A stretch of DNA of 64,000 nucleotides from Stegostoma tigrinum (lineage: Eukaryota): positions 23,539,033-23,603,032 of the forward strand of contig NC_081360.1 in NCBI RefSeq assembly GCF_030684315.1, given 5' to 3'. Under the pieces are notes generated by a model. That model worked only from the letters and a program-made list of their open reading frames with translations, had not been told where the DNA came from and ran no database searches. A program made the position numbers and the translations under genes. Below, piece after piece: positions 1,637 to 62,776 of the stretch (positions are counted from its first letter, which is position 1; each line of letters opens with the position of its first letter).

Positions 1637-1681
1637 ATCTGGAAAGTCCTCAAGAGATGTTTCTGTTGACTTATTTTGTAC
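1637..1681 (-). CDS. copy 1 micro-exon (45 nt) VQNKSTETSLEDFPD
   Basis: tccag|...|gtgagt; homolog of 20912-20956. Confidence 0.8.
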
Positions 1682-4050
1682 CTGGAGTAAAACATTCAGA
1701 TTTAAATATTTTATCTTCTAAACCTTGAATTTTAGAATCATTTCAAAACATAACTTCTAAACGATGCCACATTTCAAATGAGTAAGTGGCAGTCCTTGCA
1801 AATTTTGGAATTGGGATTCAGTGCTGGACTGAACCAAACAGCTCCTGTTCTCCAGTGCAGCAAGAATTGACCCTGCTCTGGAACGTTCAGGCTTTGGTGT
1901 TGTTAGTTAAACTCGTCAAGTGTGAGATATGCCATTGAATCTGCAGTGCCCACTCTGCACAATATCCGTTACAAAGGAAGTGCTAGTAATTATAGACTAC
2001 TATTATTGAGAATGTAAGAAAGGCCATTCTCCTGATGCCGGCATTTATGCCTGATCAGACCTGTGGATATTCTACTGGCTTTACCTTCACTGAAGGCAAG
2101 ACACCTTGAGTGTATGTGAGTTTAAACATCAGACTCCCCACCCGCAGTTTTTTCAGGCTGAAATAAATAATCATTTCACACTTCATTCTGAAGCATTTGG
2201 ATTCTGGATTCTACTCATTTTTGTAGATAATTTGGATCAGGAGGAAAGTAATCTTTCAGAATTCCCAGTTTCTACTTACATTGGATGATTCTTTGATTCC
2301 TTTCTCCTTTGATTTGGTTTTGAGCTGGAATAAAATATTAACATATCTATATTTAATACAGAAGACCAATGAGGAATCTGGTAAACTATCTGAAATGTAA
2401 TATCTTCCAGTATCTTGTTGTATATAATTTTGAGGTTACCTCGACACTGTTTTCACTTGACTCAAATGATCCACTTTTACCGTTGATTGTCTTCAGCCCT
2501 CTGCACTCCACATCAACTTCTATAACCTCATCAGCATAATATTCAACGTGGCTTTTGCAAAAGCCTTTCTCCTGTCAAAACGGATTTGATTAAAATTACA
2601 CTCAGTACTTGCATGCTATAAAGCAGTACACGGTGCACTTTCTATCATATATCGCAATTTGAGCAGCTCTATCTATGTTATATAATCCAGTGCACATGGT
2701 TTTTCTGAGATGTAACTCGGCATACAGGGCCCTTCTTGTGATACACATCTGCTGATATGAGTGTGACAATATAACTCAGAACTTACTGCAGACTTTTTGG
2801 TTCGGAAGCGACAGCTGCGATCATCAAATTCCAGTCCAGAATTCTTGGAGCAGACTGTTTCTTTCACAGAGAATGTTAAATCCACATTGTACGACAATTT
2901 TCCTGTGCGATGAATCTAATGAGAGGGAAACAGTTCATTAGTAACATAGATACACAAGCAGGAGGCTGGAAAAATACAGCAAGCTAGGCAGCATCTGGAA
3001 GAGGAGGAATACTGCATCCAGTTCTGGTCGCCCTATTATAGGAAAGATGTGGATGCTTTGGAGAGGGTTCAGAGGAGGTTTACCAGAATGCTGCCTGGAC
3101 TGGCGGGTTTATCTTATGAAGAGAGGTTGACTGAGCTCGGACTTTTTTCATTGGAGAAAAGGAGGAGGAGAGGAGACCTAATTGAGGTATACAAGATAAT
3201 GAGAGGCATAGATAGAGTTGATAGCCAGAGACTATTTTCCAGGGCAGAAAAGGCTAACACGAGGGGTCATAGTTTTAAGCTGGTTGGAGGAAAGTATAGA
3301 GAGGATGTCAGAGGTGGGTTCTTTACACAGAGAGTTGTGAGAGCATGGAATGCGTTGCCAGCAGCAGTTGTAGAAGCAAGGTCATTGGGGACATTTAAGA
3401 GACTGCTGGACATGCATATGGTCACAGAAATTTGAGGGTGCATACATGAGGATCAATGGTCGGCACAACATCGTGGGCTGAAGGGCCTGTTCTGTGCTGT
3501 ACTGTTCTATGTTCTATGTTCTATGAATCAATGTTTTGGGTATTACCCTTCTTCGGGGATGAATGCTGGGGTAGGGGAAGCTAGAGATAGAGGGAGGGGT
3601 GAGGGGTAGCGGAATGGTGGTGATAGGTGGACTCCCATCAGTATGTGTAATATAACATTATGCTTCTGTTTAATAATTCGTGTCACACCGCGCTCAGTAA
3701 TATTCTTCTAGAATTTTGAGAGTGAAACCGACTGAGACCAGGACATACTTACATCCTTCACACTTCTCCTGGTTATCCTACACAGATTGCTGGTCTCAGT
3801 GATTTGGTTCAGTTTTAGAACAGACGCTCTCAGTGCATCCTTTGGGCTTGGTATTCCTGTCGAGAGAAAAGGAAAGTTGTACAAATCATTCTGGAGTTCT
3901 TCAGTGAGTTATTTTTACACATTGGTGATATCTCAGCGACTGAGACTCATTAGCAGTAATTTGTTCCTCAATGGGGTGATGCTCTCTCTGGTACCTACCT
4001 GAGCAGTGGAGAATCTGCACTGCAGCAATGGTGAGGAGGAAGGCTTTCAT
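1637..4050 (-). CDS. SPP2/Spp24-like paralog, copy 1 (3'-incomplete). Exons 3999-4050, 3753-3856, 2787-2915, 2440-2571, 2280-2324, 1637-1681; the rest presumably lies left of the window
   Basis: All introns are GT-AG with a consistent frame. Spliced protein: MKAFLLTIAAVQILHCS-GIPSPKDALRASVLKLNQITETSNLCRITRRSVKD-IHRTGKLSYNVDLTFSVKETVCSKNSGLEFDDRSCRFRTKKSA-EKGFCKSHVEYYADEVIEVDVECRGLKTINGKSGSFESSENSVE-LKTKSKEKGIKESSN-VQNKSTETSLEDFPD. The motifs DAL.ASV.K.N, F.V.ET.C.K.SG and C-x17-C match mammalian SPP2 as recalled. Confidence 0.85.
2280..2324 (-). CDS. copy 1 micro-exon (45 nt) LKTKSKEKGIKESSN
   Basis: ttccag|...|gtaagt; positional homolog of 21551-21595. Confidence 0.75.
2440..2571 (-). CDS. 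copy 1 exon 4 (132 nt, C-x17-C loop plus Ser/Glu stretch)
   Basis: cag|GAG AAA...GTC GAG|gtaacc. Confidence 0.9.
2787..2915 (-). CDS. copy 1 exon 3 (129 nt, first disulfide loop)
   Basis: tag|ATT CAT...TCT GCA|gtaagt; overlaps track ORF 2673..2897. Confidence 0.9.
3005..3525 (+). mobile_element. young 5'-truncated CR1-type LINE with a (TTCTATG)n tail, nested in a short Penelope-end fragment
   Basis: Uninterrupted ORF 3049..3435 (ALERVQRRFTRMLPG...RGDLIEVYKIM); microsatellite tail. Confidence 0.9.
3753..3856 (-). CDS. copy 1 exon 2 (104 nt)
   Basis: cag|GA ATA CCA...AAG GAT|gtaagt. Confidence 0.88.
3999..4050 (-). CDS. copy 1 exon 1 (signal peptide, 52 nt)
   Basis: ATG at 4050; MKAFLLTIAAVQILHCS+G; donor GTAGGT. 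Confidence 0.88.
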
Positions 4051-4140
4051 TCTGCCTCTTGTGTGATCGGCTGGCTGCTTTCTCAGAGTAAAGGAGCTGC
4101 TTCTCTCTCTTGCTGTGCCCTTTCCTTGCTGCGTTCAGTC

Positions 4141-4187
4141 TTTATATCTCGCGCCTCCACCACATTCAAACACTGACTCATATTTAC
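4141..4187 (-). promoter_or_regulatory. copy 1 proximal promoter: TATAAA (4141-4146), Runx-type ACCACA (4159-4164), AP-1 TGACTCA (4174-4180), forkhead-type TATTTAC (4181-4187)
   Basis: Motifs read directly, about 90 nt upstream of the ATG; same order in all three copies. Confidence 0.7.
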
Positions 4188-4599
4188 ACAGTTTTGGTCC
4201 CGGGCAGGGAAAGCTGCTGCCAAGTGGCTCTAATATGGTCAGAGCTTCTGCCCAGTATCGTCATCATGTTTAGATTTGGTGAGATCAGAGATTATTTTTC
4301 AGCATGTGAAATTATGAATTGACAAGAAGACGGGAAATTATCTGCTGTAATTTTCACAATATATGCATGTCAGTGTTCCTGTGTTTACACAGCTAAATGT
4401 GTTTTACACATTCAGTGCACAAAGCGTATTGAGCTCATGTTGAATCAATTATTGTTGCAAAAAATAATCATTGTACGTTTACAAAGCTCACCATTTCTAT
4501 TTCACAAATTGTTCTTCAAGTTCAGGTGTTGAAGACATGCACTAGGTACTGTGAATTTGTAGAGCACACTGGTCAATTGACTCCACTTTCTTGCCCCTC

Positions 4600-4925
4600 A
4601 TAGAATTCATGAAGTGTGGAAGCAGACCATTTGGCTGATTGAATCCACACTAACCCTCCGAGGAGTATCCCATCCAGAGCCAACCCCTACCCTATCCCTG
4701 TAACTCTACGTATCCCATGGCTAATCCACCTAGCCTGCACATACTTGGATACTATGGGCAATTTCCCATGGCAAATCCACATAACCTGCACATCGTTGGA
4801 CTGTGGGAGGAAACCCATGCAGACTCATGAAGAATATGTAAGGCCCTCAGAGATAAGGCTGGAATCGAACCTAGGTCCCTGATATTGTGAGGCAGCAATG
4901 CTAACCACTGACCCACCATGCTATC
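4600..4925 (-). mobile_element. HE1-like tRNA-derived SINE
   Basis: Same family as 13170-13490, 14205-14450 and 53270-53625; a partial plus-strand copy is at about 4995-5200. Confidence 0.75.
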
Positions 4926-5754
4926 CCATATTGTTACAATCTTGTTAAAATCAGTCCCTAGGTGAGGTACCCTAATTTGTTATAGTTTCAGGGTTCAAAG
5001 ATGTGCAGGTTAGGTGGATTGCCATGCTAAAATTGCCCCATGGTGTCCAGGCATGTGCAGGCTAAATAGATTAGTTGTGGGAAATACAGGATAACAGGGA
5101 TAAGGTGAGGGGCTGGGTCTGGGTGGGATGTTCCTGGACGGCCAGTGCAGACTCGATGGGCTGAATGACCTGCTCTTGTACTTTAGGGATTCTATGTTTC
5201 TACCTCAAACAGTTAATCTGCCAGGTGAGGTAGATTGAATTGACCCCCTGCCTTATTTTCCATACCCGCTCCCAGTTGTTTACAACAAAGGTCTCGACTT
5301 GAAACATCAACTTTCCTGCTCCTCCGATGCTGCTTGGCCTGTTGTGTTCATCTAGCTTCACACTGCGTTATCTCAGATTCTCCAGCGTCCGCAGTTCCTA
5401 CTATCTCTGATTATGGAAAAGATCTGTTTCCTTGCGAATACCTTTCTTCCAGAACCCCCCAAAAAATTAGGTGCTAAAGGGACCAGATTTAATCTGGATT
5501 TCTTGAATTTAAAAGAAAACAGTTTAGCAATGCAACACATATACGTGTAGAGTCGACAAAGAGATGAATTGAAAAAGATAAAATTTAAAATGAAGTGTAT
5601 GAATCAGTCTCTGTTCCGAAGGTGCAGACAGTTGAATATTTTGGCTGTGACATTAAATCCTAGGGTAATGTTGACCTTGGTAGTTCAATAGTTGATTGCA
5701 AGACTTTTGGCTTTGTAAGTTGAGCAAAAGTGTTTTTTCCTGATCATAATGAAC

Positions 5755-6005
5755 AAAAGAACAAATCACAATACTGACAGGAACAGGCCCTTTGGCCCTC
5801 CAAGCCTGCTTTGACACATTTTGCTCTTCCAAAATTAAAATTGTCTTCACTTACAGGACGTGTATCCCTCTAATCCCTTCCTATTCATGTATTTGTCCAG
5901 ATGCTTCTTGAATGCTGCTGTGTGTCTGCTTCCACCACCATTTCTGGCAGCACGTTCCAGGCACTGACCACTCTTTGTGTGCAAAACATGCTTCACATCA
6001 TCTTT
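5755..6005 (-). mobile_element. CR1-type LINE 3' end
   Basis: Similar to the other CR1 tails (ggcccttt.ggccc...aagcctgc). Confidence 0.7.
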
Positions 6006-7079: not shown

Positions 7080-7292
7080 GGGCGGGTCCCCTATTTACAA
7101 ACATCTTCCTTATAAATGTTCATACTTATGAACGTAAACCCATACAGGGGTGTCATTTTAAATATCCGACGTTCAAACATTTTCTGTACTTACGAACTGC
7201 TACTTTGGGTTCTCCTGCATTGTGTTTCAACCTGCGTACAAGTCAACTTAAGGAGTCAGGAATTGAACCCATTTACAAACAGGGACTGTCTT
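7080..7292. mobile_element. possible Tigger/pogo-like MITE remnant
   Basis: Imperfect inverted ends (gtcccct... / ...agggac) and internal repeated 'cttacgaac'-like motifs. Confidence 0.4.
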
Positions 7293-8479: not shown

Positions 8480-8600
8480 ATTATTCCAGTTCCCTCTCCC
8501 CATCCCCCTCTCTGATGAAGGGTCTAGGCCCGAAACGTCAGCTTTTGTGCTCCTGAGATGCTGCTTGGCCTGCTGTGTTCATCCAGCCTCACATTTTATT
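8480..8600 (+). mobile_element. Penelope-like element terminal fragment
   Basis: ccctctctgatgaagggtctaggcccgaaacgtcagc... matches the end of the 25270-26720 element; related copies at about 5290-5410, 24510-24625, 47508-47848, 50627-50727 and 54780-55000. Confidence 0.8.
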
Positions 8601-18954: not shown

Positions 18955-18987
18955 TTAGTGACGGGATCTTGAATCATCATGGTATTC
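18955..18987 (-). CDS. copy 2 terminal coding exon EYHDDSRSRH*
   Basis: ttccag acceptor; TAA at 18957-18955; the 3'UTR is homologous to the copy 3 3'UTR. Confidence 0.78.
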   Translation of the reverse strand, partial: EYHDDSRSRH

Positions 18988-21900
18988 CTGGAATGAACAG
19001 CAGGAATACAAAAATTATTTTTGAATGGACTGAGTTCAGTCTGAGTTTGGTGTTTTATTGTTAATGTTGATCATAATTGAGAGACAGTTCTCTGGCACAA
19101 ATTCCCCAGCTTATACTTACATTTGAAGACATATCATGTGATGTTTCTGTTGATTTGCTTTTCACCTGCATTAAAATGTTCAGATTAATCAGTTTATCAT
19201 CAGGAATCAGTCAGACATTTTGTAGCTAATACTGAGTATATTAAATCATAAATGGGGAAATGTTAACTCTTGATATTTATGGCTCTCTGCGTAAAAGTAA
19301 ATAAATTTAAAAATACAGAACTGCCTCAGACACTATTGCCATGCAGCTGAACGCAGTCTTCATCGGTTTATTCAAGTTAATAATTATCTGACATAAACTT
19401 TCAAATTATACTCACATTGGGAGACTCCTCAACTGATGTTTCTGTTGATTCATTTTTCATCTGGAAAAGAAAGATTTATAACTTATAATTTAAAACTTTG
19501 CAGACAATCTTGATCACCTCAAAGTGCCTCATAGCTAAACCTTTAAATACAATCAGGTTATAAACAAAGAACTGATGAAACTTTAGATTCTGCATTGGGG
19601 TTCAACGGCTCACACTGAAATTTTCCATTTCAGATCCAAGATATTGAGCCGGATGAATCCCGTAGTGATGAGAAAGCTTGATCAATCAGTGTCAGGAGTT
19701 GACTGGTTAGCTTCTTGGTCATTTGCAAGGCTCAACAGTGAACCATCGCCTCTCCAGAAGCTGCTGCCAGTCAGAGACCATCAGTTTTTGCGTCTGAGAG
19801 GTTATCGGTGGGGGCCAAGTCCTTTAGGGGTCCACACAGGCGAGAAGGTAAAACTTTTTGCTTCAGTTCTCATGGGGTGGGGTTTGTAAGGAGCGGAATG
19901 TCAGGAGGAAATGCACGTAAGGGGCAGGGGTGTTTCAATGGTCACTACCCCTTGCACCATCCCCATCCTCCATCGCTGTTTTTAATTGTCCTCAGATTGT
20001 AACAAACGGATACCTCCCCAAACAGGCAGCGGGCCGCTCTGGTTTCCCACTGACAACTTTTCTCACCCACCAGGAAAGCAGCTGATTAGGACGATCATAT
20101 GTTGAGGCCTTTATTGATTGACCACTTCAAGGCCATATTTGCTGGCAAATTGGGAAGGAACTATGCATCCAGCACTAAATTACTGCGGCAGTGAGATGGG
20201 GGCAAGCAAGACTCCATAATGATTCACTCAATGATTTTCTCCAACCACCACATTCTTGCAGGGTTGATAATAGTTTGTCCTCACTGATGGAATGGAGAAA
20301 TATTCACTCCTATTCTCCTAATCTCAAAACAGCAGTGATAAATCCAGCTCTTGGGACGTGGGGCTGTATTGTTGATGGATAAATTACTGGAAGCCACATT
20401 GACCCTTCCACGTAAAGAAATGATGAGGAAATTGTAATCAATGATGCCCTCATGAAACCGTCAGATCGGCATATCGAGTTATTATAGTTCTTGTCAGTGG
20501 CATGTATTTTCCGTGAATCGAGAAAATTCTAAAATGTATGAAATAACTAACAGCTACTGGGCATCAATTCAACAAAATCCATAAACAACCCAACAGTAAC
20601 TAAACATCAGAATCTCCTCAGCCACAGCCTCTGTTTGGGCATTTATTTAATTAAATTATTTAGAGTCTATTGTGATAAACCCAGGTCTCAATGGGCTATA
20701 GGCATCAATATTGATCTGATGGTAGCTCAGTTTAGAGTTTGATACAGAATAATGCCAACAGTATGGAATCAATTCCTGCACCAGCTGAGGCAGTTCTTGT
20801 GACCACTCTGCTCAACTTGCCCCATGGTATTATCCGTAATTGCCTACCCTCAGTTAATGAGGATGCTCTATGAAGCGAAAGTGAGATAAGCACCTAGTGC
20901 AAAATACTTACATCCGGCAAGTCCTCAAGGGATGTTTCTGTTGACATGCTTTTCACCTGGAATAAAATATTTAATTCATATAATTAGCATTTTGCAAATA
21001 GTTTTGAATCATGGAATCATTTCCAAAGAAAAGCTTTAAATCACAGAAGATTATAGGTAAGGAGGTGACAATATTTTGAATTTCAGAGTCACAATTCTTT
21101 GACTCAAGTGTTGCTGTGGAAAAAACCGTTGCAGTAATAATCAATCCAGTTCTGGGACAATGGAGCTACAATGCTGATGGGTATAATAATGCAGACCATT
21201 CTCCATCAACTGGCATTTATTGTGTTGAATCTGCAGGTCCCTTCTAAATCAGACCAGTAGATAATGTATTTTATTGGTGAGAGGTAGTGTTGTCCTAGTG
21301 CCAATATATGTATCTGCCCAGTCATGTGGATGTTCAGCTGACATTAACCTCAGAGAAGAACAAATGCTCCCTCTGCATTTGACTTCCCCCTCCCCTACCC
21401 CAACATACCCTCTCCCCCAATATCTCAGATGAAAACAAATTAACATCTCATACTCCATTCCAACCTCGTTTCATTCTGGGTTTTATACATTTTTTTGATA
21501 ATTCTGCACAACAAGAAAATAATCTGACAAAGTTTTAAGTTTCTACTCACATTTGGTGATTCCTCAACTGACGTGGGTTTTGCTTCGGTTTTGACCTGTA
21601 TTGAAATATTAATATTGAAGTAATTAGCTCAGTAGAACAGTGAGACATGTGAATTTTCAAAATGATAGAAGCCTCATTGTCCTGATGTGTGTAATTGTGT
21701 GCTTACCTCAAGACTGTTTTCGTTCAACTCTGATGAGTCACTGTTGCTGTCAACTGTCTTCAATCCTCGACACTGTACATCAATGTCAACAATCTCATCA
21801 GCAAAATATGCAACATGGCTTTTGCACAAACCTTTCTCCTGTCAGAACAGAATTGATTAAAATTACAATCAGCACACTTTATAATGTAACTCAATACACA

Positions 21901-22862
21901 CATTGCTTTCTTCAATATAACGTGGAATAAATTGCTCATTCAGGGGTATACCTCTGTACCATGAGTATTTGAGTGTGACAGCACAATTCAGAACTTACTG
22001 CAGGCTTTTTGGCACGGAAGTGACAGCTAGGGTCATCGAATTCCAGTCCAGAATTCTTGGAGCAGATGGTTTCTTTCACGGAAAATGTTAAATCCACATT
22101 GTACGACAATTTCCCAGTGCGGTGAATCTAATGAGAAGAGAAACGTTTCATTAGTGTCTGACTGCAGCTGGAGTTCTTACTCTGGGTGGATTCACCCATC
22201 AGTGTGAGTAAAATAACGCGTTCTGTGGTGTAGATATTCAGTTGGCTGGACGGCTGCTTTGCAAGGGATGGGTGCAATTACTGTCCTGGCTGAGATCGCC
22301 ATGAATATAGCACCTCCTTGACATCGCCTTTCACCACAAGGCATGTTGACCTTCAGGTTAAGCAACAACCAGTCTCTTCAGTCTAAAGAGAGAGCATGAT
22401 GTGGTGGTGCCCTAGAGAGCAGCCCGATGTGCTCTGGAACTATGGTGACCTTACATTTACTTTCAATATGACATTCTTCTGCTTTGTAATAATCCGTGTT
22501 GCTCTGCACGCAGTAATATTCTTGCAGAGTTTAGAGAGTGAAACAGACTGACACACTTACATCCTTCACTCTTCTCCTGGTTATCCCGCACAGATTGCTG
22601 GTCTCAGTGATTCGGTTCAGTTTTAGAACAGACGCTCTCAGAGCATCCTTTGGGCTCGGTTTTCCTGCCAAAAGGAAAAGAAAACTGCACAAAACAGAAT
22701 TGTCTGGGGTTCTTTAGCGAGTTATTTTACACATTAGTGATATCTCAGTGAGTGAGCCTCATTGCCAATAACTCGTTGCTTGATGAGGTGCTGCTCTCTC
22801 TGGTACCTACCTGAGCAGTGGAGAATCTGCACTGCAGCAATGGTGAGGAGGAAGACCTTCAT
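18955..22862 (-). CDS. SPP2/Spp24-like paralog, copy 2 (complete, 9 coding exons, 209 aa). Exons 22811-22862, 22561-22664, 21999-22127, 21707-21838, 21551-21595, 20912-20956, 19416-19460, 19121-19165, 18955-18987
   Basis: 630-nt spliced ORF, all introns GT-AG: MKVFLLTIAAVQILHCS-GKPSPKDALRASVLKLNRITETSNLCGITRRRVKD-IHRTGKLSYNVDLTFSVKETICSKNSGLEFDDPSCHFRAKKPA-EKGLCKSHVAYFADEIVDIDVQCRGLKTVDSNSDSSELNENSLE-VKTEAKPTSVEESPN-VKSMSTETSLEDLPD-MKNESTETSVEESPN-VKSKSTETSHDMSSN-EYHDDSRSRH*. TATA box upstream and AATAAA downstream. Confidence 0.88.
19121..19165 (-). CDS. copy 2 micro-exon 8 VKSKSTETSHDMSSN
   Basis: 45 nt, phase 0-0, cag/gtaagt. Confidence 0.82.
19416..19460 (-). CDS. copy 2 micro-exon 7 MKNESTETSVEESPN
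   Basis: 45 nt, phase 0-0, cag/gtgagt. Confidence 0.82.
20912..20956 (-). CDS. copy 2 micro-exon 6 VKSMSTETSLEDLPD
   Basis: 45 nt, phase 0-0, cag/gtaagt. Confidence 0.82.
21551..21595 (-). CDS. copy 2 micro-exon 5 VKTEAKPTSVEESPN
   Basis: 45 nt, phase 0-0, cag/gtgagt. Confidence 0.82.
21707..21838 (-). CDS. copy 2 exon 4
   Basis: 132 nt, cag/gtaagc. Confidence 0.9.
21999..22127 (-). CDS. copy 2 exon 3
   Basis: 129 nt, tag/gtaagt. Confidence 0.9.
22561..22664 (-). CDS. copy 2 exon 2
   Basis: 104 nt, cag/gtaagt. Confidence 0.88.
22811..22862 (-). CDS. copy 2 exon 1 (signal peptide)
   Basis: ATG at 22862; donor GTAGGT. Confidence 0.88.
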
Positions 22863-41623: not shown

Positions 41624-41637
41624 TCACCATAGTGTCC
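41624..41637 (-). CDS. copy 3 terminal coding exon (TGA at 41626-41624 in the shifted frame; ancestral frame runs to 41578)
   Basis: ttccag acceptor; homologous to 18955-18987. Confidence 0.65.
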
Positions 41638-44600
41638 CTGGAAAGAACAGCATGAAGGCAATGGTCATTTTCAGATGCAATTAGTTCAATATTTTATTGT
41701 TATTGATGATCATGACCGAGAGACTATTCTTGGCACTAAGTCCCAGTTTATACTCACGTTTGAAGCCTCCCGCAGTGACCAGTCTTTTGATTTGTTTGAC
41801 ACCTGTATTTAAAAGTATCAGGTATCAATTTATTTTTACTTCTCTAAATTTACAGATTCATATGAAATTTGCTGTTTACAATGATATTAGATTACAAATT
41901 ATTAGATTTTGAAAGGTGATGAAACAGTAACTCCTTAGATTTCAGAGTTGGGAATTCAACAACTCAGCGAAGAAATCCTCACCAGTGCAGCAATAGTCTG
42001 TTCAGCCCTAGGATAGGGGTTCTTGCATAAATTAATGGAGAGTCAGGTTATTGATGAGATTGCCCCTCTTGTGCATTCTTAAAGACACAGGGATTTTTGT
42101 TTGGCAAGTATTGAACATCTAAAAGTTGATCCATTACATTTTTTAAGCGTGAAATAATTTTCATGGGAACAGGTAAACATCTCCTCTTAAGTCCCTCCCA
42201 AAATCCTTTGACTAGCACTGGCGAAGACTTGACAAGATTCATCAGGTCGCCTTCCTTCCCTGGCTGATTCGGGGTGACGTTGAATTCATTAAAAACATAG
42301 CACAGTGCTGTCACAGACTCCACTCTAACCAGAGAAATACGCCATGTGGTTGCCAATAGTGTTGTGGCAAAAATCCAGATATATACTCACGTTTGTAGAC
42401 TCTTGGACGTGGAGTTCTTCTCATTTTCACCTGAATTTAAATAGAAATATTTATATATGCAGTCCAGGGGTTGATGTGATGTTTCTTTGAAACTTTAGCT
42501 TTAGCATCATCAAAACTCAATAACCAAAACAACAGATTAAAGGAGGAGATTTAAAATAGTAAATTTCTGGGATGTGGTGCAATGTATCAGTGTGGAATGG
42601 GGGTGAAGGCATCACCAAATATGTGAATGGTTTACATTGATCATTGGTCAAGATGCTAAAGTAATAAAATGGACTGCGTTGTGTTGACCCTCGGATAATA
42701 AAGAGGAATTATTTCTTTGAACAGCAGCAAGCAATAATAACATCTCTGTGCAGGTTTACTGCTGGTGAAAAGTCAAGAGCTGCTCTGGCTGTCATTCCAT
42801 TGCAGCAGGGGTTCGCCAAAGGAAGAGTCTGAAGATACAACTTCAAGCCTGACAAAATCTGAGTCTAGAGCAAAAGGCAAAGTCAGAGACCCTATTGTCC
42901 AGATGAGTTAAGTTGTGAGGTTACCTCGATGCTGTTTTCACTGGACTCGAAAGATCCACTTCTGCTGTCAAATGTCTTCAATCCTCGACACTCCACATCA
43001 ACGTCAACAACTTCATCAGCAAAATATTCAACGTGGCTCTTGCAAAATCCTCTTGCCTGTCAAATGAAATGGGAGACTTTTCAAGTTATTTATTACTGGG
43101 AGACTATTAAAGATATTTATTACATCATTTTCAGACTGAAATCTGAAGGGAGCTCAATGCACATACAAGTCAATGCACATAGATATTTCTATTATATAAT
43201 CTGATAAATGACTGCCTTTTCTTTACAAAACATAATCAATACTCACAGCCCTGCTTACGATATGACCAAATGCACACAGTCCATTCTGCGACATAAATCA
43301 TCATACAAGGCCCTTTCTCGGATAATTTTCACAGCATGCAACACTTTCTATGACATTGCATAATACACATTGCACTTTCCACTTATAATTCAATACTCAT
43401 GACCCCTTCTATGATACTCATTAATCAATACCCACAACCTTTTCTAACATAACCTTGCGCACATGGCATTTTTTTGATATAGCTCAATACAGAGCCCTTC
43501 TACCCTTTCTGTGATAATCTTTGGTATACACAATACTTTCTATTATATAATTCTGTGCACTTGTAATTTGAATGTAGTTGTGAAGTTTAGAGTCATAGAG
43601 TCTCAAACAGACACTGCGGTCCAACCAGCCCATGCCGAACATAATCCCAGGCTAAGTAGACCCACCTGCCTGTTCTTGGCCCTTATCCCTCTAAACATTT
43701 CTTACTCATGTATTTGCCTAAATGTCATTTAAAGGCTGTAAATGTGCCCACATCCACCACTTCCTGGGGAAGTTCATTCCACACGCAAACCACTCCTGTG
43801 TAAAACAATTGCCCCTCATGTCTTTTTAAAATCTTTCCTCTGTCACCTTAAAAATATACCCTCTATTCTTGAGCTCCCCACCCTATGGAAAAGACACCTG
43901 CTATTCACCTCATCTATACCCATCATGATTTTATAAACCTTTAGATACCCCTCAACTTACTGCGCTCTAGAGAAAAAAGACTCAACCTATCCAGCCTCTT
44001 CCCGTAACTCAAACCCTCCATTCCAGGCGACATCCTGATAAATCTCTTCCGAACCCTCTCCAGCTTAATTATATCCCTCCATAAAGCAGGCAGGCCAGAA
44101 CTGGACACAGTACTCTAGAAGAGGCCTCACCAATATCCTATACAACCTCAACATGATGTCCCAACTCCTCCACACAAAGGCCTGAGTATTGAAAGCAAGC
44201 ATGCTAAATGCCTTCTTAACCACCCCATCTATATGTAATGCAAAATTCAAAGAATTATTACATACCTAAAACCCAAGTCTATCTGTTTCTCTGATATTAC
44301 TCAATATGCAAGTCACTTTCTATAATAAAGCTGAGTATACCGTAACTTTCAATGGCATAACTTTGTATGCATGAAGTTTGAATGTGACAAATGTAACTCA
44401 GAACTTACTGCGGCCTTTTTGGGATGGAAGCGGCAGCTGGGGTCATCAAATTCCAGTCCAGAATTCTTGGAGCAGACTGTTTCTTTCACGGAGAAGGTTA
44501 AATCCACGTTGTATGACAATTTTCCTGTGCGGTAAATCTAATGAGAGGAAAACAGTTCACTAGTGTCTGACTGTACTTGGTTTTCTTACTCTGAACTGAC

Positions 44601-46553
44601 TGACCTCCTACGTAAGAATCACAAGGACAACAATGCCAATTTATATAAAATCTTTAATGTAACAAACTAACCACAAGATGCTACACAAGAGTGTTATAAA
44701 GCAACATTTTGCACTGAACCAAATAAGGTAATGGTTGAATAATTGCCAAAAGGTCAATCAAGGAGGAATCAAAGACAGAAGTGGAGAGATAGCGAGGCAC
44801 AGGCAATGAATTTCAAAGCTTAGAGCCCAGGTAGCTGAAGGCAAAGACGCTAATAGTGGAGAGATGAAAATCAGGAATACTCACTGATATGTAAGGGCTT
44901 AATAGTCTTAATGGATTAATGATAAGAAGTGCATAAAATGTTATCACTTGGACTTGGGTGGGGAGTCAGCTTTGCGTCTTGAAGGAGTAAGAACTAACAT
45001 CAAGGTGTATCGCTGACTCATTGGCAGTGCCTATCATACCAACAGTACTTAGTATCTGGCTACTATCACACAACAAACTTCATCTTATTTAAGTTAAGAG
45101 TATCTTCTCATTATACTACAAAGAATTGTTTTCTCAACGAGAGTAGACCAAGTGGACCCAGTCGTCCCTATCAGGGAAGAGAATGATGTCAGCAAATCTA
45201 CCGGATAGCTCTTACCCCATGGTGTGCTGTGGTGAGGATTCATCTTACAACATTCATGAAGGCAGAAATGAGGACTGGAGGTATCAAGGGAGTGTTGTGA
45301 ATTTGCAGGAAATCAGGGGAGTCAGGAGTGAGGACAAAGGAGGGTTTGCGAAATTTTAAAATCAAGGTATTGTTTGACTTGCAGCTAATGAAGGCTGCAG
45401 GGTGATCATGGTAACAGACCTTGCTACGAATTACGACACATGCAGCAAACCTTTGTACGAACTCAAGTTTATGGAGGAGAAAGGATGAAAGATAAGTCAG
45501 ATGTGCAGCTGAATAGTCAGGTTTATATAATATTGTGAGAATCAAAAATGGAAATTGCTGATAAAACGGATGTTGCCAGCAATTCTGTTTTTGTTTCAGA
45601 TCTCCAACATTCACAGTTCCTTGTTATATTGTAACAGCATGAGAATATTTTTAATAAGACCAATAGTAGACCATTCTGCCCCTCAAGTCTGCACACAATT
45701 CCATAAAATCATGGCTGATCTGATTGTGTTGTAGATTCCACGTTTACTGCCTATCCCCCTACCTGTTGACCAGAGGTCTAGAGGTAAGAACAAGGGCTTC
45801 AGCAGCAAATGAGCTGAGACTAGGGTTGAGACAAGCGATGTTACAGAGACAGAAACTAGCAGACTTGGTGACGATATGAAATTCTGCTCGGAAGCTCTTC
45901 TCAGGGTCAAAAACGTTAGAAGGGGTCTGGTTGAGCCTGAGACAGTTGTGGTGAGAGTGACAAGAGCCAAGTGGAATTGCAACTTGAAATAAGTCAGTGC
46001 GTCAGCAGGATCTCCAAAGGATGACATGAGAGATACAGAGGGAGCAATAAGCTGATCTCACAGAGTGGGAAATCTGGGATAGTTGAGGAGAACTGGAAGG
46101 ACAGAGAATTGAGCCAGTAGGAGGCATGATAAAGAAGGAGTGGAAACTAGGAAGAATGAAGGAAAAATAAGCTGAAAGAGAAGAGGAATAAATGTTCTCA
46201 GTAATAATGTTGTAGAGTTTAGAGAGTGAAACAGACTGAGGCCAGGACGCACTTACATCCTTCACTCTTCTCCTGGTTATCCCGCACAGATTGCTGGTCT
46301 CAGTGATTCGGTTCAGTTTTAGAACAGACGCTCTCAGAGCATCTTTCGGGCTTGGTTTTCCTGTTGAGAGAAAAGGAAAGTTGTACAAAACATTCTGGAG
46401 TTCTTCAGTGAGTTATTTTACACATTGATGATATCTCAGCGAGTGAGCCTCACTGCCAATAACTTGTTGCTCAATGGGGTGCTGCTCTCTCTGGTACCTA
46501 CCTGAGCAGTGGACAATCTGCACTGCAGCAATGGTGAGGAGGAAAACCTTCAT
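41624..46553 (-). CDS. SPP2/Spp24-like paralog, copy 3. Exons 46502-46553, 46257-46360, 44409-44537, 42925-43056, 42391-42430 (40 nt), 41758-41802, 41624-41637; 171 aa with a cationic tail
   Basis: MKVFLLTIAAVQIVHCS-GKPSPKDALRASVLKLNRITETSNLCGITRRRVKD-IYRTGKLSYNVDLTFSVKETVCSKNSGLEFDDPSCRFHPKKAA-ARGFCKSHVEYFADEVVDVDVECRGLKTFDSRSGSFESSENSIE-VKMRRTPRPRVYKRVKQIKRLVTAGGFKRTLW*. If the 40-nt exon is skipped, the tail reads VSNKSKDWSLREASN-GHYGDSRFQHQAGMKLLKS* (stop at 41578). Confidence 0.8.
41758..41802 (-). CDS. copy 3 micro-exon (45 nt)
   Basis: tacag/gtgagt; homolog of copy 2 exon 8, with a shared downstream intron. Confidence 0.78.
42391..42430 (-). CDS. copy 3 frame-shifting micro-exon (40 nt)
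   Basis: ttcag|GTGAAAATG...TCTACAAAC|gtgagt; both ends resemble the 45-nt exon family, but it is 5 nt shorter. Confidence 0.68.
42925..43056 (-). CDS. copy 3 exon 4
   Basis: 132 nt, cag/gtaacc. Confidence 0.9.
43590..44290 (-). mobile_element. 5'-truncated CR1-type LINE in copy 3 intron 3
   Basis: ORF 44065..44250 (LYRILVRPLLEYCVQFW). Confidence 0.85.
44409..44537 (-). CDS. copy 3 exon 3
   Basis: 129 nt, tag/gtaagt. Confidence 0.9.
46257..46360 (-). CDS. copy 3 exon 2
   Basis: 104 nt; inside track ORF 46002..46388. Confidence 0.88.
46502..46553 (-). CDS. copy 3 exon 1 (signal peptide)
   Basis: ATG at 46553; donor GTAGGT. Confidence 0.88.
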
Positions 46554-53816: not shown

Positions 53817-53934
53817 CCCGCTCTGTCCATGTGATTGTGGCTGATCTCACCTCGGTCTCAATTCCATGGACCTGCCGGCTCTCCACAACCTTTTGGCCCA
53901 CTGCTAATTAAGACAATTAAAGCATAAAACACTT

Positions 53935-56152: not shown

Positions 56153-58435
56153 ACAGGGAGAAAGGATGTTGATAGTTCAGATTAAAAGATCAGAATATGA
56201 GAACATCACAAGTGAGATGAATTAAAGGAGAAACTGTGCAGAGGGAGAGCAAGTTCATCCAAGCGAGGAGAATACTGGTGGATGGGGACATTGCTTTCAC
56301 AGATGGCAAGAGCCAATCGGTAACAATAAAATCCATTGCTATTTGCCCAACATTGGGACAGCAATCATCTCAAAATGTCTTGATGGAATGAATTGTTTTT
56401 GACGGACAGCAAATGTCATTGTTTGGGTGAATGTTGGGACTGTGAGTATCAAAAGGTCGTTGAGAAAGAGTGGTCAACCTTTGAAACCTCAAACCTGACA
56501 CTGTAAAAACTCTCAGGTTTGTGGGACCATTCTTGAAATTTGGTGTCAACAGCACAAAACCTCAAGTGACAAATATTGATGTTGGCTAAGACTCTGCTGT
56601 CAGTGGGAGTAAATGGCCTCGGACCAGGGTAAACCATCATTTGCTGATTGTAAATTAAATCAATTAGGGTAGAAGTTGAGAGTTTGGGCCGCTGAGAAAT
56701 TCTGTTGAAACACAGCCTTCTGTTGGCAGAGAATAGAAACTTAAGATAGTTGTTGAGCACTTATCAACTCTGGGATGTGCATCCATCAGCTGGCCTATAC
56801 AGAGAGATCTTCCAATGCTCAGAGTGATAAGGAAAGGAAGCCATGTCTCTTGTGGTAGTTACCATTTTCAAAAATTTTTTAAAAAATTATCATTACAGAT
56901 TTGCTCAGTGTTTTCCTTGCCTAGATCTTCATCGTGAAATTATCAGGTATATGGAAATATTTCCCTGATGGCAGCCCTCTGGAATGTTGTACCTGGCATG
57001 TAGGAATAATACCTAAAGGTTTAACATTTATGTACTCAAAATAAAAAAATACATTTCAAATGCCTGAGGGTTTGAAATGTTTTCATTAATGGAGGCCCAT
57101 TTTATGTTCGGACATATGTTAACAAAATTGAGTCAATGTTCACATGCGGGAGAACTCTTGACATCTTTCAGGCACTGGGCTGATAACTAGCAAATAGTTT
57201 TCATGCTAAACAGGTTCCAGGCATTGGCTATCTCCGGCAAGAGCGAATCTCACCATCTCCCCTTATCATTCAATGGCTTCCCCATTGCTAAATCCTGCGG
57301 GAGAATATTAATTTCCTCAGCGTTACCATTGATCAGAAACATGACTGAACCAACTAATATAAGTATTGCAGCTACAAAAGCCTGCAAATTCTGCAGCAAA
57401 TAACTAACCTTCTCAGACACTGCCCACCCCTAGCTCCTCTTGCCAGCATTAAAATTACAGCCTGGTGGTAAATGATCCTTAAGTGCTTAAGGGCCTCCAT
57501 TGGCTGTAGGCCTTACCTGCCATCTTTAAAATTTCAAAACAAAAACTAAGGTTGGGTAGATAGAAAGGAGGGAGGCCTTGCAGAAACATTTCCATCATCA
57601 CCCTCCACCCACACATCTCCAAACAACATTAAGACGGGCTTGTAAAATTCTGCTGATCCACCCACTATCGACACATACACACGCACACACACATCCAGAT
57701 ATCCTTTTTTGAAGGGGACCGGAATTACAGAAAACCCCTTGCAAGTGGCGGCAACAACTCGGATCGTGTTGCACCTTTAACAGAGCAAAAAGCCCCAAGG
57801 CATGTCACAGGAACATTGAAAACCAAAATTTGACATTGAGCCACACAAGGAGATATTACACCAAAAATCAGCAGATTTTTAATGGGTGCCTTTGAAGGGA
57901 AGAGAGCGAGAAGTCGTGGGAGAGAAGCTCAGGCAACTGTACAGTGAATGATGGTGAAGTGATTGAAATTGAGGATGTTCAAGGGGCCAGAGTTTGGTAA
58001 GTGCCCAATCTTAGAGGACTGTGCGGTCAAAGAAGATTGCAGAAAAAGAAGGGATAAGGACTCAGAGGGATTTAATTGTAAACAAGGATAAGAAATTCGA
58101 ATTAATCAAAAGAAGACTTGAAAAAATTCTTTTAGGGGACAGGGAGAAAGGATGTTGATATTTCAGATTAAAAGATCAGAACACGGGAGAGTCACAACTG
58201 AGATGAATTAAAGGAGAAATTGTTCAGAGAAAGACCAAGTTCAGCCACGCGAGGAAAATGCTGGTGGATGGGGATGTTGCTTTCACAGATGGGACAAGCC
58301 AATCAGAAATAATAAAATCATTGCTATTCTCCCAACACTCTGACCTCAATCGTCTCAAAATGTCTTGATGGAATGAATTGTTTTTGAAGGACGGCGAATG
58401 TCATTGTTCAGGTGAGTGTTGAGACTGACAGTATC
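56153..58435 (+). repeat. about 300-bp diverged direct repeat (56153-56450 and 58139-58435)
   Basis: Both start acagggagaaaggatgttgata.ttcagattaaaagatcagaa and share tctcaaaatgtcttgatggaatgaattgtttttga. Confidence 0.85.
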
Positions 58436-58850
58436 TCACAGAATGAGATCACACGGACCATGTGTTCTTGGACTGTTTACACAGGTTTTCCAGATTTAAA
58501 ACCATAAACACATTGTGTCAAACCTCTATTCAGGTCACTGCCAGCTCTGTGCAGAGCACCTTAGCTGCATTGTTTAACCCTGGAATTGGTTTATTGTGAA
58601 AAGACTCAGTCTCAGTCATTGTTAGAGCAATTGCAGATTGCTGAAGTGCAATGAACAGGCAACAGGACAATGTCTACAATAATCAGCTTGTTTTATTTTA
58701 ATGTTTTCAACTTATTGAGCGAGAGAGAAGAGACTACTGTTATTGTGACAGAGCTAATGAGATAAGAATGAATGCTTCAGTTTGCACTGCTTGCAGTTGA
58801 AATAATGGCAGACATATCGACTTGTGCATTCTGTGAACTCCGAACCCCCG

Positions 58851-59009
58851 TTACTCCACTTTGGATTCCTGGTTCTGTTTACGATTTGGCTTCTTTCTGG
58901 AGGATAATCCTTGGCTCAAAGGCTTGCCTTGCTTATTGGGTCTTCTTGGGTTGGCATCATTTCCACGGCTCTGAGGAAATTGCTTGTTATTCTGGTAATT
59001 CCAGTCAAC
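58851..59009 (-). CDS. spp2: spp2 last coding exon (159 nt including TAA)
   Basis: Pyrimidine tract plus ctag acceptor; open in phase 0; AATAAA at 58692-58697 downstream. Confidence 0.72.
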   Translation of the reverse strand, partial: VDWNYQNNKQFPQSRGNDANPRRPNKQGKPLSQGLSSRKKPNRKQNQESKVE

Positions 59010-62000
59010 CTAGCATTGAATAGAGAGAAGTTTACTTCCAAGCCCTTCCTGTTGACCGATCATGTCATTTCAAGGATGAGCAAGTCGCAGATAGTGGAAT
59101 GAGAGGTGAGCGAGTGCAGTCTGACACTGACTGACTGTGCCATCATTTCACAGCTTGCTCCTTTATTTAGAATAGCTCATTCAGGGATTAGTGTGCGGGC
59201 AGACATTCATCAAAGAGGTCAAAGGTGATGGCGTGAGAGCTACCACTCAGCTTGGGGCTGGGAGAGGTGTTGGACAGGGCTAGTAACCATCACCAGTTCT
59301 CGAAAGAAATGCCAAGTGGTTGGAAAGCTGTATTTTTTGGAGGAGTCTTAGTTGTCCTCTGACTTGGGCTCCCAGGTGAACAATACTCACAGCTGCAGCA
59401 GAATGGATAAAAGTTCACTGGGGGCTCATTCTCAAAGAACAAACATGACTGTATCTGCTCCCTGTTATAGCCCCATCCAGCGTTCCATTCTATTATATTC
59501 GAGACAAGTGTGTATTACAGGTAGGTGTGCATGGCACAAGAGACTAAAACAAAACCACCTATTTGATAATAGTTGAATTCCTGTGCCAATCCCAGTTATC
59601 TCACAGTGGGTCCCACAGAGTGTCCCCCACCCTTTCACAGCCTGCCTCACCAAAACCAGCAGATGCTCTGTCCTTTAATGGCCCTTGGAAATCCCATTTG
59701 GAAACCAATGCTACAAAGGGAATGGACTAGAATGGGCATAGCTACACGCTGAAGGCATTGATTTCAGATTGTCACCAAGACTTACTGATGAATAATACTC
59801 ATCCTGGAATTTTGGTTGTCTTCTTCGGTACCACATCTGCAATAAAAATATATTGTTTCATATAAATATTCATACACAAAGCCACAGAAATTATTTTGGA
59901 AACAAAATGATTCTCCAAAACAGAATTTAATAAAATTTATTATTATATAATTTGTTGAATCTCGAAGATGACGATGAGTGGAAGTTCTCTGAGTATATTA
60001 GCCTCTGATCGACTACTCCTGAGTTATGAGCACAAACCCAGCTGATTTACCTATATTCATTCTGCACCTTCAACATCCCTGATTTTAATTGATCCACTAT
60101 AGGGGGGCCAATGCCTTCGGCTGTCTGGGCCTCAGACTTTTGGAATTTTTTCCCGAAACCTCTCTGCCTCATTTTCTGTTCAAACATATTGTGAATGGCG
60201 TCTATTTGACCAATCTGTTGTTCATTTATCCTAGTACCTCCTTATCTGGCTCATTGCTGAGCTTTGATTTAGAATGGTCCTGTGAAGGGCCTTTGGCGGG
60301 ATCTTTTATTAAACTAGTGGTGCTATATAAATACAGGTTAATGTTGATAACTTTAATTATTTTGTAGATTTTATTTCAGAGTGATTTGTGATGACGACCA
60401 TGTCAATTTTCTGTGAAGGATTGCTTCCCTTTGTCTCAAACGTTGATTTTTAAGGCAGTTGAAAGCTCTCTCAGTAAAGCTTCATTCTAACACATTTATG
60501 AAGCTTTCTTCTACCTAAAGTCCAGGCAGAGCCTTCGTCCATGATTGCAATTGAGATGAAACATTGTGACAGGGCCAATGGGTTCAGTAAGTCCTGCACA
60601 GTCCAGTATTGCTATATTCCTGTGACTAATTCTCCGTGCTGTAATAGCTCTGGGTACAATGAAAAAAAATGACAACATCACAGTAAACTGTATAAATCAG
60701 CACAAATAGTGCAAAAGCACTCAGCAAAATCCCAAAACAATATAGGCAATAGAAATGTGATGTCTGGGCAGTCACATATCTTTCCCAAGGCTCAAATGAA
60801 GTCAATCCATGTCTACGTAATTATCTCTCTCTTTCCCTCTAGGCTCTATCTCTACTTCCTCAGGAGGCTAAGGAAATTCGGCATGTCCAGAATGACATTT
60901 ACCAATTTTATAAATGAACCATAGAAAACATCCTATCTGGATGCACCACAACATGGTATGGCAACTGCTCTTCTCAACACCACAAAAATCTACAGAGAGT
61001 CTTTAACACAGCCTTCACAAAAAGTAGCCTCTATCCATTGATTCCATCTACACTTCCCACTGCAAGCAAGATAATCAAAGAGACCCTCCACACTCTGGTT
61101 ATATTCTCTTCCAACCTCTTCCATTGGGAAGAAGATATAAAGCTTTGAATACACGAACGAATAGATTCAAGAAACATTTTCTCCCCAGTGTTTTCAGATT
61201 TCGGAATGGACCTCTCAAATGTTAATTAATTCTGATGTCTCTCTCCCTCTGCACCTCCTCTGCAGCTGTAACACTGTATTCTGCACCCTGTCCTACTACC
61301 CTGATACACTTTATTTGGTATAATCTGTCTGGATAGCTCAAAACAACACCTTTCACTGTTTCACAATACATGTGACAACAATCAATCAATCTCCACTTAT
61401 CACTTACTCCTTTACAAACCCCTCCCCTCTTTTCAGCCCCATCTTCAGCATATATACCAACATCTTCCTAGTTACAATCAGTTCTAAAGAATGATGAGTG
61501 GACCCGAAAAGCTAATTCTGCTTTCTCTCCACTTTTGCTGCCAAACTTGCTGAATTACTCCAGCAATTTCTTTTCTCATTTCAGGGCTATGCAATTGCAA
61601 AAACAACTGATCAGATCTAAGGTCTGCAGTCCTGCCATATCCATTCGTGAATGGTGGGAGACAACTAATCAGCTCACTGGAGAAGGAGACTCCAAAAATA
61701 TCCCCATCCTCAATAATGGGACAGCCCAGCAATCAGTGCAAAAAATAAAGCTGAAGCATTTGCAGCAATCTTCAGCCGGAAATGTTGAATAGATGATCCA
61801 TCTCAGCTTCTTCCAGAGGGCCTGTCTTCAGCCAATTTGATTCACTCCATACTATATCAAGGAACACTGAATGCAGTGAATAATACAAAGGCTATGGACT
61901 CTGACAATATTCCAACAATACTCCTGAAGACCTTACCCAATTGCAGATCAGATCCCCAACCACAATCATGCTGCTTTTCACCCCAGTGTTGCGATCAGAC

Positions 62001-62776
62001 CACCTACTCCTCACATGTTCCCAGTGGCAGCTGAAGAATCAGTTGCTGATGCACTCTGGCATTTCCCCACCTCACCTTGGCAGTCTCACTGAATTCTAGG
62101 GCACAACCAGGAAGATGGCGGAATTTGAATTTGTTAAATGTCTGGTATTAGGAGTCAAACAATGACTATGAAACCATTGCCAATTGTCAGGGGAAAAAAA
62201 ACCCATCTGGCTCACCGATGCCCTTTCGAAAAGGGAACTGCCACCCTTACCTGGCCTGGCCTACACATGACTCCAACACGCACAGCAATATAGCTGGCAC
62301 TTAACTGCTCTTAGGGCAATCAGGGAGAAATTAATAATTGTTGGCCCAGCCAGGGATGCCCACATTCCATGAGTGGATTTAAAAAAAGTTAATTCCAGTT
62401 AAATATATAAGAAATTAAATTGGAATATATGAAAACATTTAGAATTTATAGTTGTGCTAAAACTGGAGTGGAGAACCTAAGCCTATCCAAGCCTGGATCA
62501 GTTGAATAAGTACGGCAAGGAAAGGTTAACTGGGAGAACCGGTTGTTGAGGCCAATTCAATTGCAAAATTTACACATCTATAAGACATAAGAGGGTACAT
62601 TTACCATTACTCAGAATAATGAGCTTAAAATAAAAGATTACCTCTTCATCACTTTCAAAGGAGGCTGATTCACTGCTGCTGTCCATGAATGCATCTCTGC
62701 TGTCCATGCACTGTAGATACACATCAACGACTGCACCAAAGGAATAGCTAACGCGGCTTTGGCATGTGGTCATTTT
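58851..62776 (-). CDS. spp2: 3' part of secreted phosphoprotein 24 (probable canonical spp2, or a further paralog). Exons 62642-62776, 59786-59836, 58851-59009; the 5' exons lie right of the window
   Basis: Phase-0 GT-AG exons give KMTTCQSRVSYSFGAVVDVYLQCMDSRDAFMDSSSESASFESDEE-MWYRRRQPKFQDEYYSS-VDWNYQNNKQFPQSRGNDANPRRPNKQGKPLSQGLSSRKKPNRKQNQESKVE*. This reproduces the SPP2 order (C-x17-C loop, poly-Ser/Glu ending S.EE, next exon starting with M, basic tail). Confidence 0.75.
59786..59836 (-). CDS. spp2: spp2 exon (51 nt) MWYRRRQPKFQDEYYSS
   Basis: ttgcag/gtaagt. Confidence 0.72.
60840..61392 (+). mobile_element. Rex1/Babar-like LINE 3' fragment with (AATC)n tail, in a spp2 intron
   Basis: RLYFLRRLRKFGMS..TNF..IE.ILSGC.T.WYGNCS motif. 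Confidence 0.75.
62642..62776 (-). CDS. spp2: spp2 exon (135 nt; TRH1/BMP-binding-type loop plus phosphoserine cluster)
   Basis: tgcag|AAA ATG...GAA GAG|gtaatc; overlaps track ORF 62570..62773. Confidence 0.85.

Follow-up and report, generated by a model that had tools for sequence, protein, structure and literature searches.

A probable ancient frameshift behind the basic tail of one spp2.3 gene type in the spp2 (Spp24) cluster of the zebra shark

The window analysed here, a stretch of 64,000 nucleotides (nt) from the genome of the zebra shark Stegostoma tigrinum (NC_081360.1, 23,539,033-23,603,032; positions are in window coordinates unless marked G000), holds four spp2 (Spp24) genes, A to D, all on the minus strand (Table 1), and one of them, gene C, ends in a frameshifted, basic tail. 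Self-comparison of the window revealed three homologous minus-strand blocks, and in the coordinate-based exon models of the four genes all 44 splice sites carry the canonical AG/GT dinucleotides and no internal stop occurs. A first-pass annotation of this DNA had described A, B and C as paralogues 19-24 kb apart with exons of 52/104/129/132 nt and intact splice sites; this description holds, with start-to-start distances of 18.8 kb (A-B) and 23.7 kb (B-C), and each of the three genes carries a TATAAA 96 nt upstream of its ATG, which in gene A lies at 4050. Two further 45-nt exons and the last exon of gene A lie to the left of the window. The genes are not hidden from public annotation; their spliced products equal named RefSeq proteins (A 169/169 amino acids (aa) in the window, B 209/209, D 114 aa). 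The product of gene C matches XP_048390101.2 over the first 168 of 171 aa, after which the RefSeq model continues into the last intron; the models from whale, bamboo and epaulette shark that match gene C are 171 aa long, the same as the present model.

The assignment of these genes to SPP2/Spp24 was tested against Pfam: Spp-24 (PF07448) scores 32-49.5 bits against a cut-off of 26 in each of the 11 full-length proteins scanned, among them the models of A to D, with single exons on their own falling narrowly below the cut-off, and Cathelicidins stays below its cut-off in all 11 (best 19.3 bits against 21). Four invariant cysteines are present in 30 of 30 aligned proteins, the A-D family proteins have a signal peptide as predicted by sequence, and in A to D exon 4 ends in a serine-rich stretch. 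The AlphaFold model of paralogue F, a further member of the cluster, has a confident helix-plus-sheet head and a tail with a predicted local distance difference test score (pLDDT) below 50, and its top Foldseek matches are cystatin F, a cathelin-like domain and cystatin E/M. In a head-only tree of 43 chosen proteins, bony-vertebrate sequences not among them, A, B and C fall inside spp2.3 with catshark spp2.3s1-7 (support 98/96), in a clade that is sister to spp2.2; gene E, outside the window, groups with spp2.2 (100/99) and gene D with catshark spp2.1 XP_038644123.1 (100/98). The window genes are thus almost certainly Spp24 family members of the elasmobranch spp2 cluster, and the expansion is, as proposed, a cartilaginous-fish one.

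Gene D had been read as the 3' half of a divergent, canonical spp2. It does lie on the same strand, and its protein ends in a serine stretch followed by an unrelated Arg/Lys-rich tail (net charge +10 over the last 69 aa). Its sequence places it in spp2.1, one of four chondrichthyan clades, and it is the only spp2.1 gene in the 603 kb searched; it is at most a candidate one-to-one orthologue of bony-vertebrate spp2. A fifth cysteine, Cys43, is found in the mature domain of 8 of 8 spp2.2/spp2.3 proteins checked, and spp2.1 proteins have four cysteines in 14 of 14. Cys43 is encoded in exon 2 of A, B and C (3856-3753, 22664-22561, 46360-46257), and, being unpaired, it could join paralogues as dimers.

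In every spp2.3 gene whose tail was traced, a profile scan places exons of 45 nt and phase 0 downstream of exon 4, and across species 34 of the 51 acidic tails that end in the common last exon belong to one length class modulo 15. In A and B these exons are rich in Ser-x-Glu (S-x-E). The first tail exon of gene C and of paralogue F is 40 nt long, so that the next acidic-type exon is read in another frame and becomes Lys/Arg-rich. Exon 6 of gene C shares 30 of its 45 nt with an in-frame acidic exon (10,000 shuffles: mean 16, maximum 27). The resulting tail of gene C has 32 residues with 12 Lys/Arg and no acidic residue, and the cationic tails have 23-47 residues and a net charge of about +8 to +16. 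The isoelectric point of the mature protein is ~9.9 for paralogue F and 5.6-5.9 for A and B before phosphorylation; S-x-E sites number 11 in A, 9 in B and 3 in the cationic type. The basic reading was latent, since 19 in-frame acidic exons have a mean net charge of -1.2 in their own frame and of +1.7 in the shifted frame, which is open in 6 of the 19; the same trend is reported for repeats at large (PMC12871928). The exon comparison indicates that the cationic tail is the acidic tail's own exon type in another frame and not a swapped-in module. The three tail types distinguished by the first-pass annotation do exist. Frame-restoring splice sites adjoining exon 5 of gene C are absent at the required offsets, although the exon might still be skipped in some transcripts. 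A stop codon in the last exon generally does not elicit nonsense-mediated decay, and this fate is not expected for the predicted gene C transcripts, in which the stop lies in the last exon ahead of the poly(A) signals. Gene A and its whale shark counterpart have a cationic-type exon 4 followed by an acidic tail, the first tail exon of gene A having a net charge of +3, and gene A is likely a recombinant.

Table 1. Coordinates of spp2 genes and associated signals in the window
Feature	Position	Strand	Details
Gene A, spp2.3, acidic Ser-x-Glu tail	1637..4050	-	XP_048391317.1, Sti4501
Gene A exons	4050-3999, 3856-3753, 2915-2787, 2571-2440, 2324-2280, 1681-1637	-	52/104/129/132/45/45 nt
Gene A TATAAA	4141..4146	-	96 nt upstream of ATG
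Gene B, complete spp2.3, acidic tail	18955..22862	-	XP_048391351.1, Sti4513; 209 aa, nine coding exons
Gene B head exons	22862-22811, 22664-22561, 22127-21999, 21838-21707	-	52/104/129/132 nt
Gene B tail exons	21595-21551, 20956-20912, 19460-19416, 19165-19121; last exon from 18987	-	four 45-nt phase-0 exons, then last exon
Gene B TATAAA	22953..22958	-	upstream of gene B
Gene B candidate poly(A) signal AATAAA	18738..18743	-	one of four within 700 nt
Gene C, spp2.3, frameshifted cationic tail	41624..46553	-	locus of XP_048390101.2, Sti3961; 171 aa, seven coding exons
Gene C head exons	46553-46502, 46360-46257, 44537-44409, 43056-42925	-	52/104/129/132 nt, then 40/45/14
Gene C exon 5, frameshift carrier	42391..42430	-	40 nt instead of 45; entry phase 0, exit phase 1
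Gene C exon 6, Ser-x-Glu-type exon in shifted frame, basic-tail core	41758..41802	-	45 nt
Gene C last exon, coding part	41624..41637	-	family's common last exon in shifted frame; stop after 4 codons
Gene C ATTAAA signals	41548, 41406, 41214	-	3' of last coding exon
Gene C TATAAA	46644..46649	-	upstream of gene C
Gene D, 3' half of spp2.1	58851..62776	-	XP_048390755.1, Sti4237
Gene D exons	62776-62642, 59836-59786, 59009-58851	-	135, 51 and 159 nt; exons 1-3 right of window

An assembly error at the 40-nt exon was considered and rejected: paralogue F and the models of other species have the same feature, and contigs of four of four runs, all from one sample, cover exon 5 of gene C without difference or gap. 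At 42173, four intronic bases are absent from the contigs of all four runs, which is either an allele or an assembly difference.

The distribution of the basic tail was followed in a protein set built from the best 120 of 133 matches and enlarged by cluster look-ups and a further search; 152 of its 161 proteins, from 23 species, were labelled, and nine fused, partial, aberrant or unnamed ones were left out. The motif KR[VEI]KQ[IV]K[RK] occurs in 31 of the 152 labelled proteins and in 18 of the 23 species, both sharks and rays, and these species span all ten elasmobranch orders sampled; a nineteenth species has a one-residue variant. The motif was not seen in white shark, two Mobula species and elephant shark, but as the protein clusters were sampled in part, this absence is weak evidence; in one white shark model, a cationic-type head is present and the tail exons are skipped. 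All 31 cationic proteins have 13 residues between the end of exon 4 and the junction, a spacer that was not a selection criterion, and around the junction seven positions show identity or near-identity in 17-18 of 18 species. In rays and sawshark the tail terminates at the eleventh codon of exon 6, a site at which 10 of the 19 acidic exons read in frame carry a latent stop. In the outgroups, spp2.2 and the elephant shark gene, tail and last exon are in the acidic frame, and the direction of change is therefore from acidic to basic. The head-only tree sets the elephant shark gene outside spp2.2+2.3 (97/86) and PMC13188829 places it inside spp2.3; the direction of change is independent of which placement holds. 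The occurrence of the same tail in sharks and rays makes the frameshift older than their split. This split took place more than 250 million years ago. In total, these data make it very likely that a single ancient frameshift, spliced and translated, underlies the cationic tails. Two ray spp2.3 models, P0096 (Hemitrygon) and P0098 (Rhinoraja), have basic ends that lack the frameshift motif, in P0096 by means of Arg-rich unit repeats, and basic ends may thus have arisen more than once.

C and F differ by four substitutions in exon 6 and the coding stretch of the last exon, all silent in the shifted frame and all replacements in the old frame, where one creates a stop. As 27% of single changes are silent, four of four would be expected by chance at ~0.005, and zero replacements at ~0.013 with a background of 10%. 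This small sample suggests that selection now preserves the shifted frame. Alternatively, the cationic tail could stem from faulty annotation or reflect a tolerated loss of the acidic one, the copies being kept for head dosage and the peptide having no role. The default basicity of the shifted frame in the 19 acidic exons, the occurrence of sporadic frameshifted isoform models (P0075, P0154) and the shorter tail in rays are all compatible with this explanation; however, the C-F changes that are silent in the new frame and create a stop in the old one, the (near-)identity of the seven junction positions, the duplication of the shifted exon in catsharks and a non-RefSeq model with an identical tail (GCC33940.1) argue against it, and we regard it as improbable by a wide measure.

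A single origin of the cationic type has to be reconciled with trees in which whole heads pair cationic and acidic proteins by species in four shark lineages, and in an approximately unbiased (AU) test with 68 rows the whole head rejects a single cationic clade (p 0.003), which is a direct point against it. A single frameshift consequently requires a homogenisation step. We asked for each exon of the 31 cationic proteins whether it is closer to a same-species acidic paralogue, closer to a cationic protein of another order, or tied; the counts are 23/0/8 for exon 1, 21/7/3 for exon 2, 15/12/4 for exon 3 and 2/29/0 for exon 4. Likewise, a single cationic clade is rejected by exons 1-2 (p 0.0007) and exons 1-3 (p 0.0002), and exon 4 alone is compatible with it (p 0.14). 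When exon 4 by itself is used for a tree with spp2.1 as root, the alignment offers 44 columns and the root is unreliable. Exon 1 of gene E (spp2.2) is 100% identical to that of five spp2.3 genes, and its exon 2 is 61-67% identical. From these sequence patterns, homogenisation of 5' exons among shark paralogues appears likely: gene conversion or unequal crossing-over would homogenise exons 1-3, exon 4 and tail would retain the old split, and this split would be hidden in whole-gene trees. Such homogenisation can give old paralogues a young appearance. In PMC13188829 the species-wise grouping of spp2.3 is interpreted as recent independent duplication, a scheme that would require several independent frameshifts. 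The pairing by species, the rejection of a single cationic clade by whole heads and a latent frame that is already motif-like speak for repeated shifts. The 13-residue spacer in 31 of 31 proteins, common residues that are atypical of the latent frame, an exon 4 that in 29 of 31 cases goes with the tail type across orders, rays with separate cationic (100/96) and acidic (98/97) clades, and a shark-only conversion of 5' exons of the same kind reported for sparc-L/scpp (PMC9122587) speak against repeated shifts, which we judge highly improbable.

The cluster as such is not new, although the first-pass annotation knew of no description: PMC13188829 (BMC Biol 2026) reports the locus with four clades (spp2.1, spp2.2, spp2.3 and Like), their phylogeny and synteny, expression in mineralising chondrocytes and an spp2.3 copy number that rises to 15 or more in skate, and lists in its Table S14 Sti4501, Sti4513, Sti3961 and Sti4237, i.e. 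A, B, C and D. According to its text, spp2.3 proteins gain SxE motifs and are without the Arg-rich C-terminus, which also seems to be missing from all catshark proteins besides spp2.1. This description fits A and B; it does not fit C, F or the catshark proteins XP_038646306.1 (spp2.3s1) and XP_038646303.1 (spp2.3s2), which both carry the basic tail, the shifted exon being present twice in spp2.3s2. The words "exon", "frameshift", "lysine" and "conversion" are absent from the main text of that paper, and in the literature searched, which comprised top-ranked matches and few subscription journals, a single paper on shark spp2 was listed and no frameshifted or cationic spp2 form is described. We conclude that the cluster was already known and that the old frameshifted variant goes unreported in the main text of PMC13188829.

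The expression data provided with that paper bear on where the basic form is made. In catshark Meckel's cartilage, spp2.3s1 and spp2.3s2 reach 1109 and 2692 transcripts per million (TPM), and outside the three skeletal samples (31 samples) they do not exceed 4.2 and 11.6 TPM; in the basal state the s1/s2 values are 0.02/0 in blood, 0/3.2 in spleen and 0.03/2.0 in gill. Together, s1 and s2 account for 45% of spp2.3 TPM in Meckel's cartilage, 43% in chondrocranium and 42% in vertebrae. Liver secretion, which had been carried over from SPP2, does not apply in these data: spp2.2/2.3 are skeletal, spp2.1 is highest in gill and no catshark copy is expressed in liver.

Combining the sequence, age and expression data, we suggest that the best explanation overall, and one we hold to be rather probable, is an old spp2.3 sub-lineage defined by a 40-nt exon, whose basic tail likely binds polyanions of mineralising cartilage; whether polyanion binding is the main role of the tail we put at slightly under an even chance. 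In this model, (i) chondrocytes would secrete both acidic and basic spp2.3 forms, (ii) the acidic forms would be phosphorylated by Fam20C and bind calcium phosphate, (iii) the basic form would keep three S-x-E sites and add a disordered polycation, (iv) the basic tail would bind sulphated chains of proteoglycans as well as sibling phospho-tails, and (v) this binding would keep the head, which binds growth factors, at the mineral front and offset local negative charge. The heparin-binding consensus XBBXBX has one match in each of the four cationic tails checked. Tentatively, an early-elasmobranch deletion may have made a conserved polycation such that a near-equal acid/base pair co-assembles, possibly also through the fifth cysteine, and controls the mineralisation of tessellated cartilage, and chimaeras, with one acidic-type copy, would be without this pair.

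Several points weigh against the polyanion-binding sub-lineage as set out here. XBBXBX is short and frequent in basic peptides. The frame test is based on just four substitutions, and exon 5 is freer, with four residues differing between C and F. Conservation of the basic core does not exceed that of the best acidic-tail windows, either between orders (0.80 against 0.84) or between sharks and rays (0.74 against 0.82), the control favouring the acidic set, and conservation of the motif is partly circular because the motif was the selection criterion. The zebra shark tail is known from genomic sequence, the four runs having given only genomic pieces; the cationic tails of other species are gene models, and in the RefSeq model of gene C the last junction is missing and the reading continues into the intron. 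Finally, the catshark TPM values come from near-identical paralogues, and in situ probes cross-hybridise (PMC13188829).

Two other functions of the tail have to be weighed. With the same sequence history, the basic tail could re-create the Arg-rich, cleavable C-terminus of mammalian Spp24 and make the protein mainly a protease-switched, high-affinity binder of BMP/TGF-beta in cartilage (cf. PMC3753320). The order of head, Ser-rich stretch and basic tail is the same as in canonical Spp24 and the tail contains two Lys-Arg pairs; however, it stems from acidic exons and has no sequence relation to the canonical tail, and a furin-type R-X-[KR]-R is found in one of the four tails checked. We consider such a role unlikely, if worth keeping in mind. 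Alternatively, the protein could be a convergent, cathelicidin-like precursor with a cystatin head and a cleaved cationic host-defence peptide that guards avascular cartilage. The predicted cystatin fold of the head, for which cathelin-like domains rank high among the Foldseek matches, a language-model neighbour score of 0.93 for cathelicidin clusters (0.98 for Spp24-like) and the length and charge of the tail are in line with this idea. Yet the cathelicidin peptide is encoded by a single final exon, and the tail of gene C is spread over three exons; its core is invariant across orders and not fast-evolving, Pfam Cathelicidins stays below cut-off in 11 of 11, and expression of the catshark orthologues is close to nil in blood, spleen, gill, gut and skin denticles (PMC13188829). 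The helical hydrophobic moment of the tails is also not above that of shuffles (736-2470 of 5000 reach it), and we find a host-defence precursor improbable. An amphipathic helix in the cationic tail is supported neither by this moment nor by the AlphaFold tail of paralogue F, which is predicted to be disordered (pLDDT < 50).

The genes share traits with several known systems. With mammalian SPP2/Spp24, they share a signal peptide, a four-cysteine cystatin-like domain and a serine-rich stretch, and C and D also a basic C-terminus; however, the mammalian gene is single-copy and mostly liver-made, whereas the shark genes are multi-copy and, in catshark, skeletal or gill-expressed, spp2.2/2.3 have Cys43, and the basic tail of gene C has a separate origin by frameshift. 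The likeness to cathelicidins (PF00666) lies in a cystatin-fold domain with a cationic peptide at the C-terminal end, but gene C nests in spp2.3, falls below the Pfam cut-off, is skeletal by its catshark counterparts and has no marked amphipathicity. The chondrichthyan spp2 cluster of PMC13188829 is the same cluster between the same flanking genes, and the difference lies in the basic tails of its own spp2.3s1 and spp2.3s2. SCPP genes, as described in PMC9122587, are likewise tandem genes for secreted, acidic SxE proteins of mineral matrix, with phase-0 introns and 5' conversion in sharks; they differ in a sparc-like origin of their 5' exon and in having no cystatin domain, which makes their likeness to spp2.3 convergent. 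In euAP3 (PMC1513400) a post-duplication frameshift also gave rise to a new, conserved C-terminal motif, and in HMGB1 disease frameshifts (PMC9931588) an acidic disordered tail is replaced by a basic one. Unlike in these two cases, the charge reversal of spp2.3 is fixed in a secreted matrix protein and spreads via modular micro-exons.

The spp2.3 genes are the foremost candidates for explaining how the cartilage of cartilaginous fishes is mineralised in the absence of bone. Should about four in ten of their transcripts code for a basic protein in place of an acidic phosphoprotein, the family would supply two opposite reagents and not doses of one, and the models in PMC13188829 would change accordingly. 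The tail of gene C would also offer a clear example of a motif that arose by frameshift with reversed charge and has been retained since the shark-ray split.

The surrounding cluster was scanned by tblastn and hidden Markov models (HMM) over 603 kb (23.34-23.94 Mb of C9). With exon 3 as query, nine matches were obtained in G000, all on C9 within 240 kb, and in total ten spp2 loci lie in G000:C9:23.517-23.760 Mb, with Z, A, B, C and D on the minus strand and E-I on the plus strand. Thus, the co-orientation claimed by the first-pass annotation is true of the four genes in the window, and in the whole cluster there are five loci per strand. The tblastn and HMM scans found no members beyond these ten between 23.34 and 23.94 Mb; the zebra shark count in PMC13188829 is 12. 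Two loci are broken: Z (G000:C9:23,517,2xx-23,518,793, minus strand), with an exon 2 of 106 nt and an exon 4 of 131 nt that are off frame, and H (G000:C9:23,739,205-23,744,233, plus strand), with two stops and two AT donors. The spp2.2 gene E lies at G000:C9:23,675,746-23,685,327 (plus strand), and its exon 4 is lengthened by a Gly/Lys/Arg-rich insert.

The synteny suggested earlier as a check places the cluster in the interval from an ARL4-like gene to vps8. At C9:23.224 Mb, ~290 kb to the left of the cluster, there is an intronless Arf-family gene, and on the right a Vps8 domain is encoded ~180 kb away, at C9:23.937 Mb, in agreement with a locus between arl4c/sh3bp4 and nme9/vps8 on the Arf-family and Vps8 flanks. 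We take the Arf-family gene to be ARL4C. About 0.9 Mb to the right of the cluster, a divergent cystatin-type exon (L067, G000:C9:24,655,419-24,655,505, minus strand) matches Spp-24 and the spp2 profile weakly and is possibly a spp2.Like gene. On another contig, L041 and L042 (G000:C14:77.22-77.23 Mb) are TGF-beta-family mature domains with identical 125-residue translations, ~11 kb apart on opposite strands. Long open reading frames in the 400-kb flank appear repeat-like by eye, and 51% of the window is recopied elsewhere within a 463-kb region, 30% in three or more copies, as paralogue segments and interspersed repeats.

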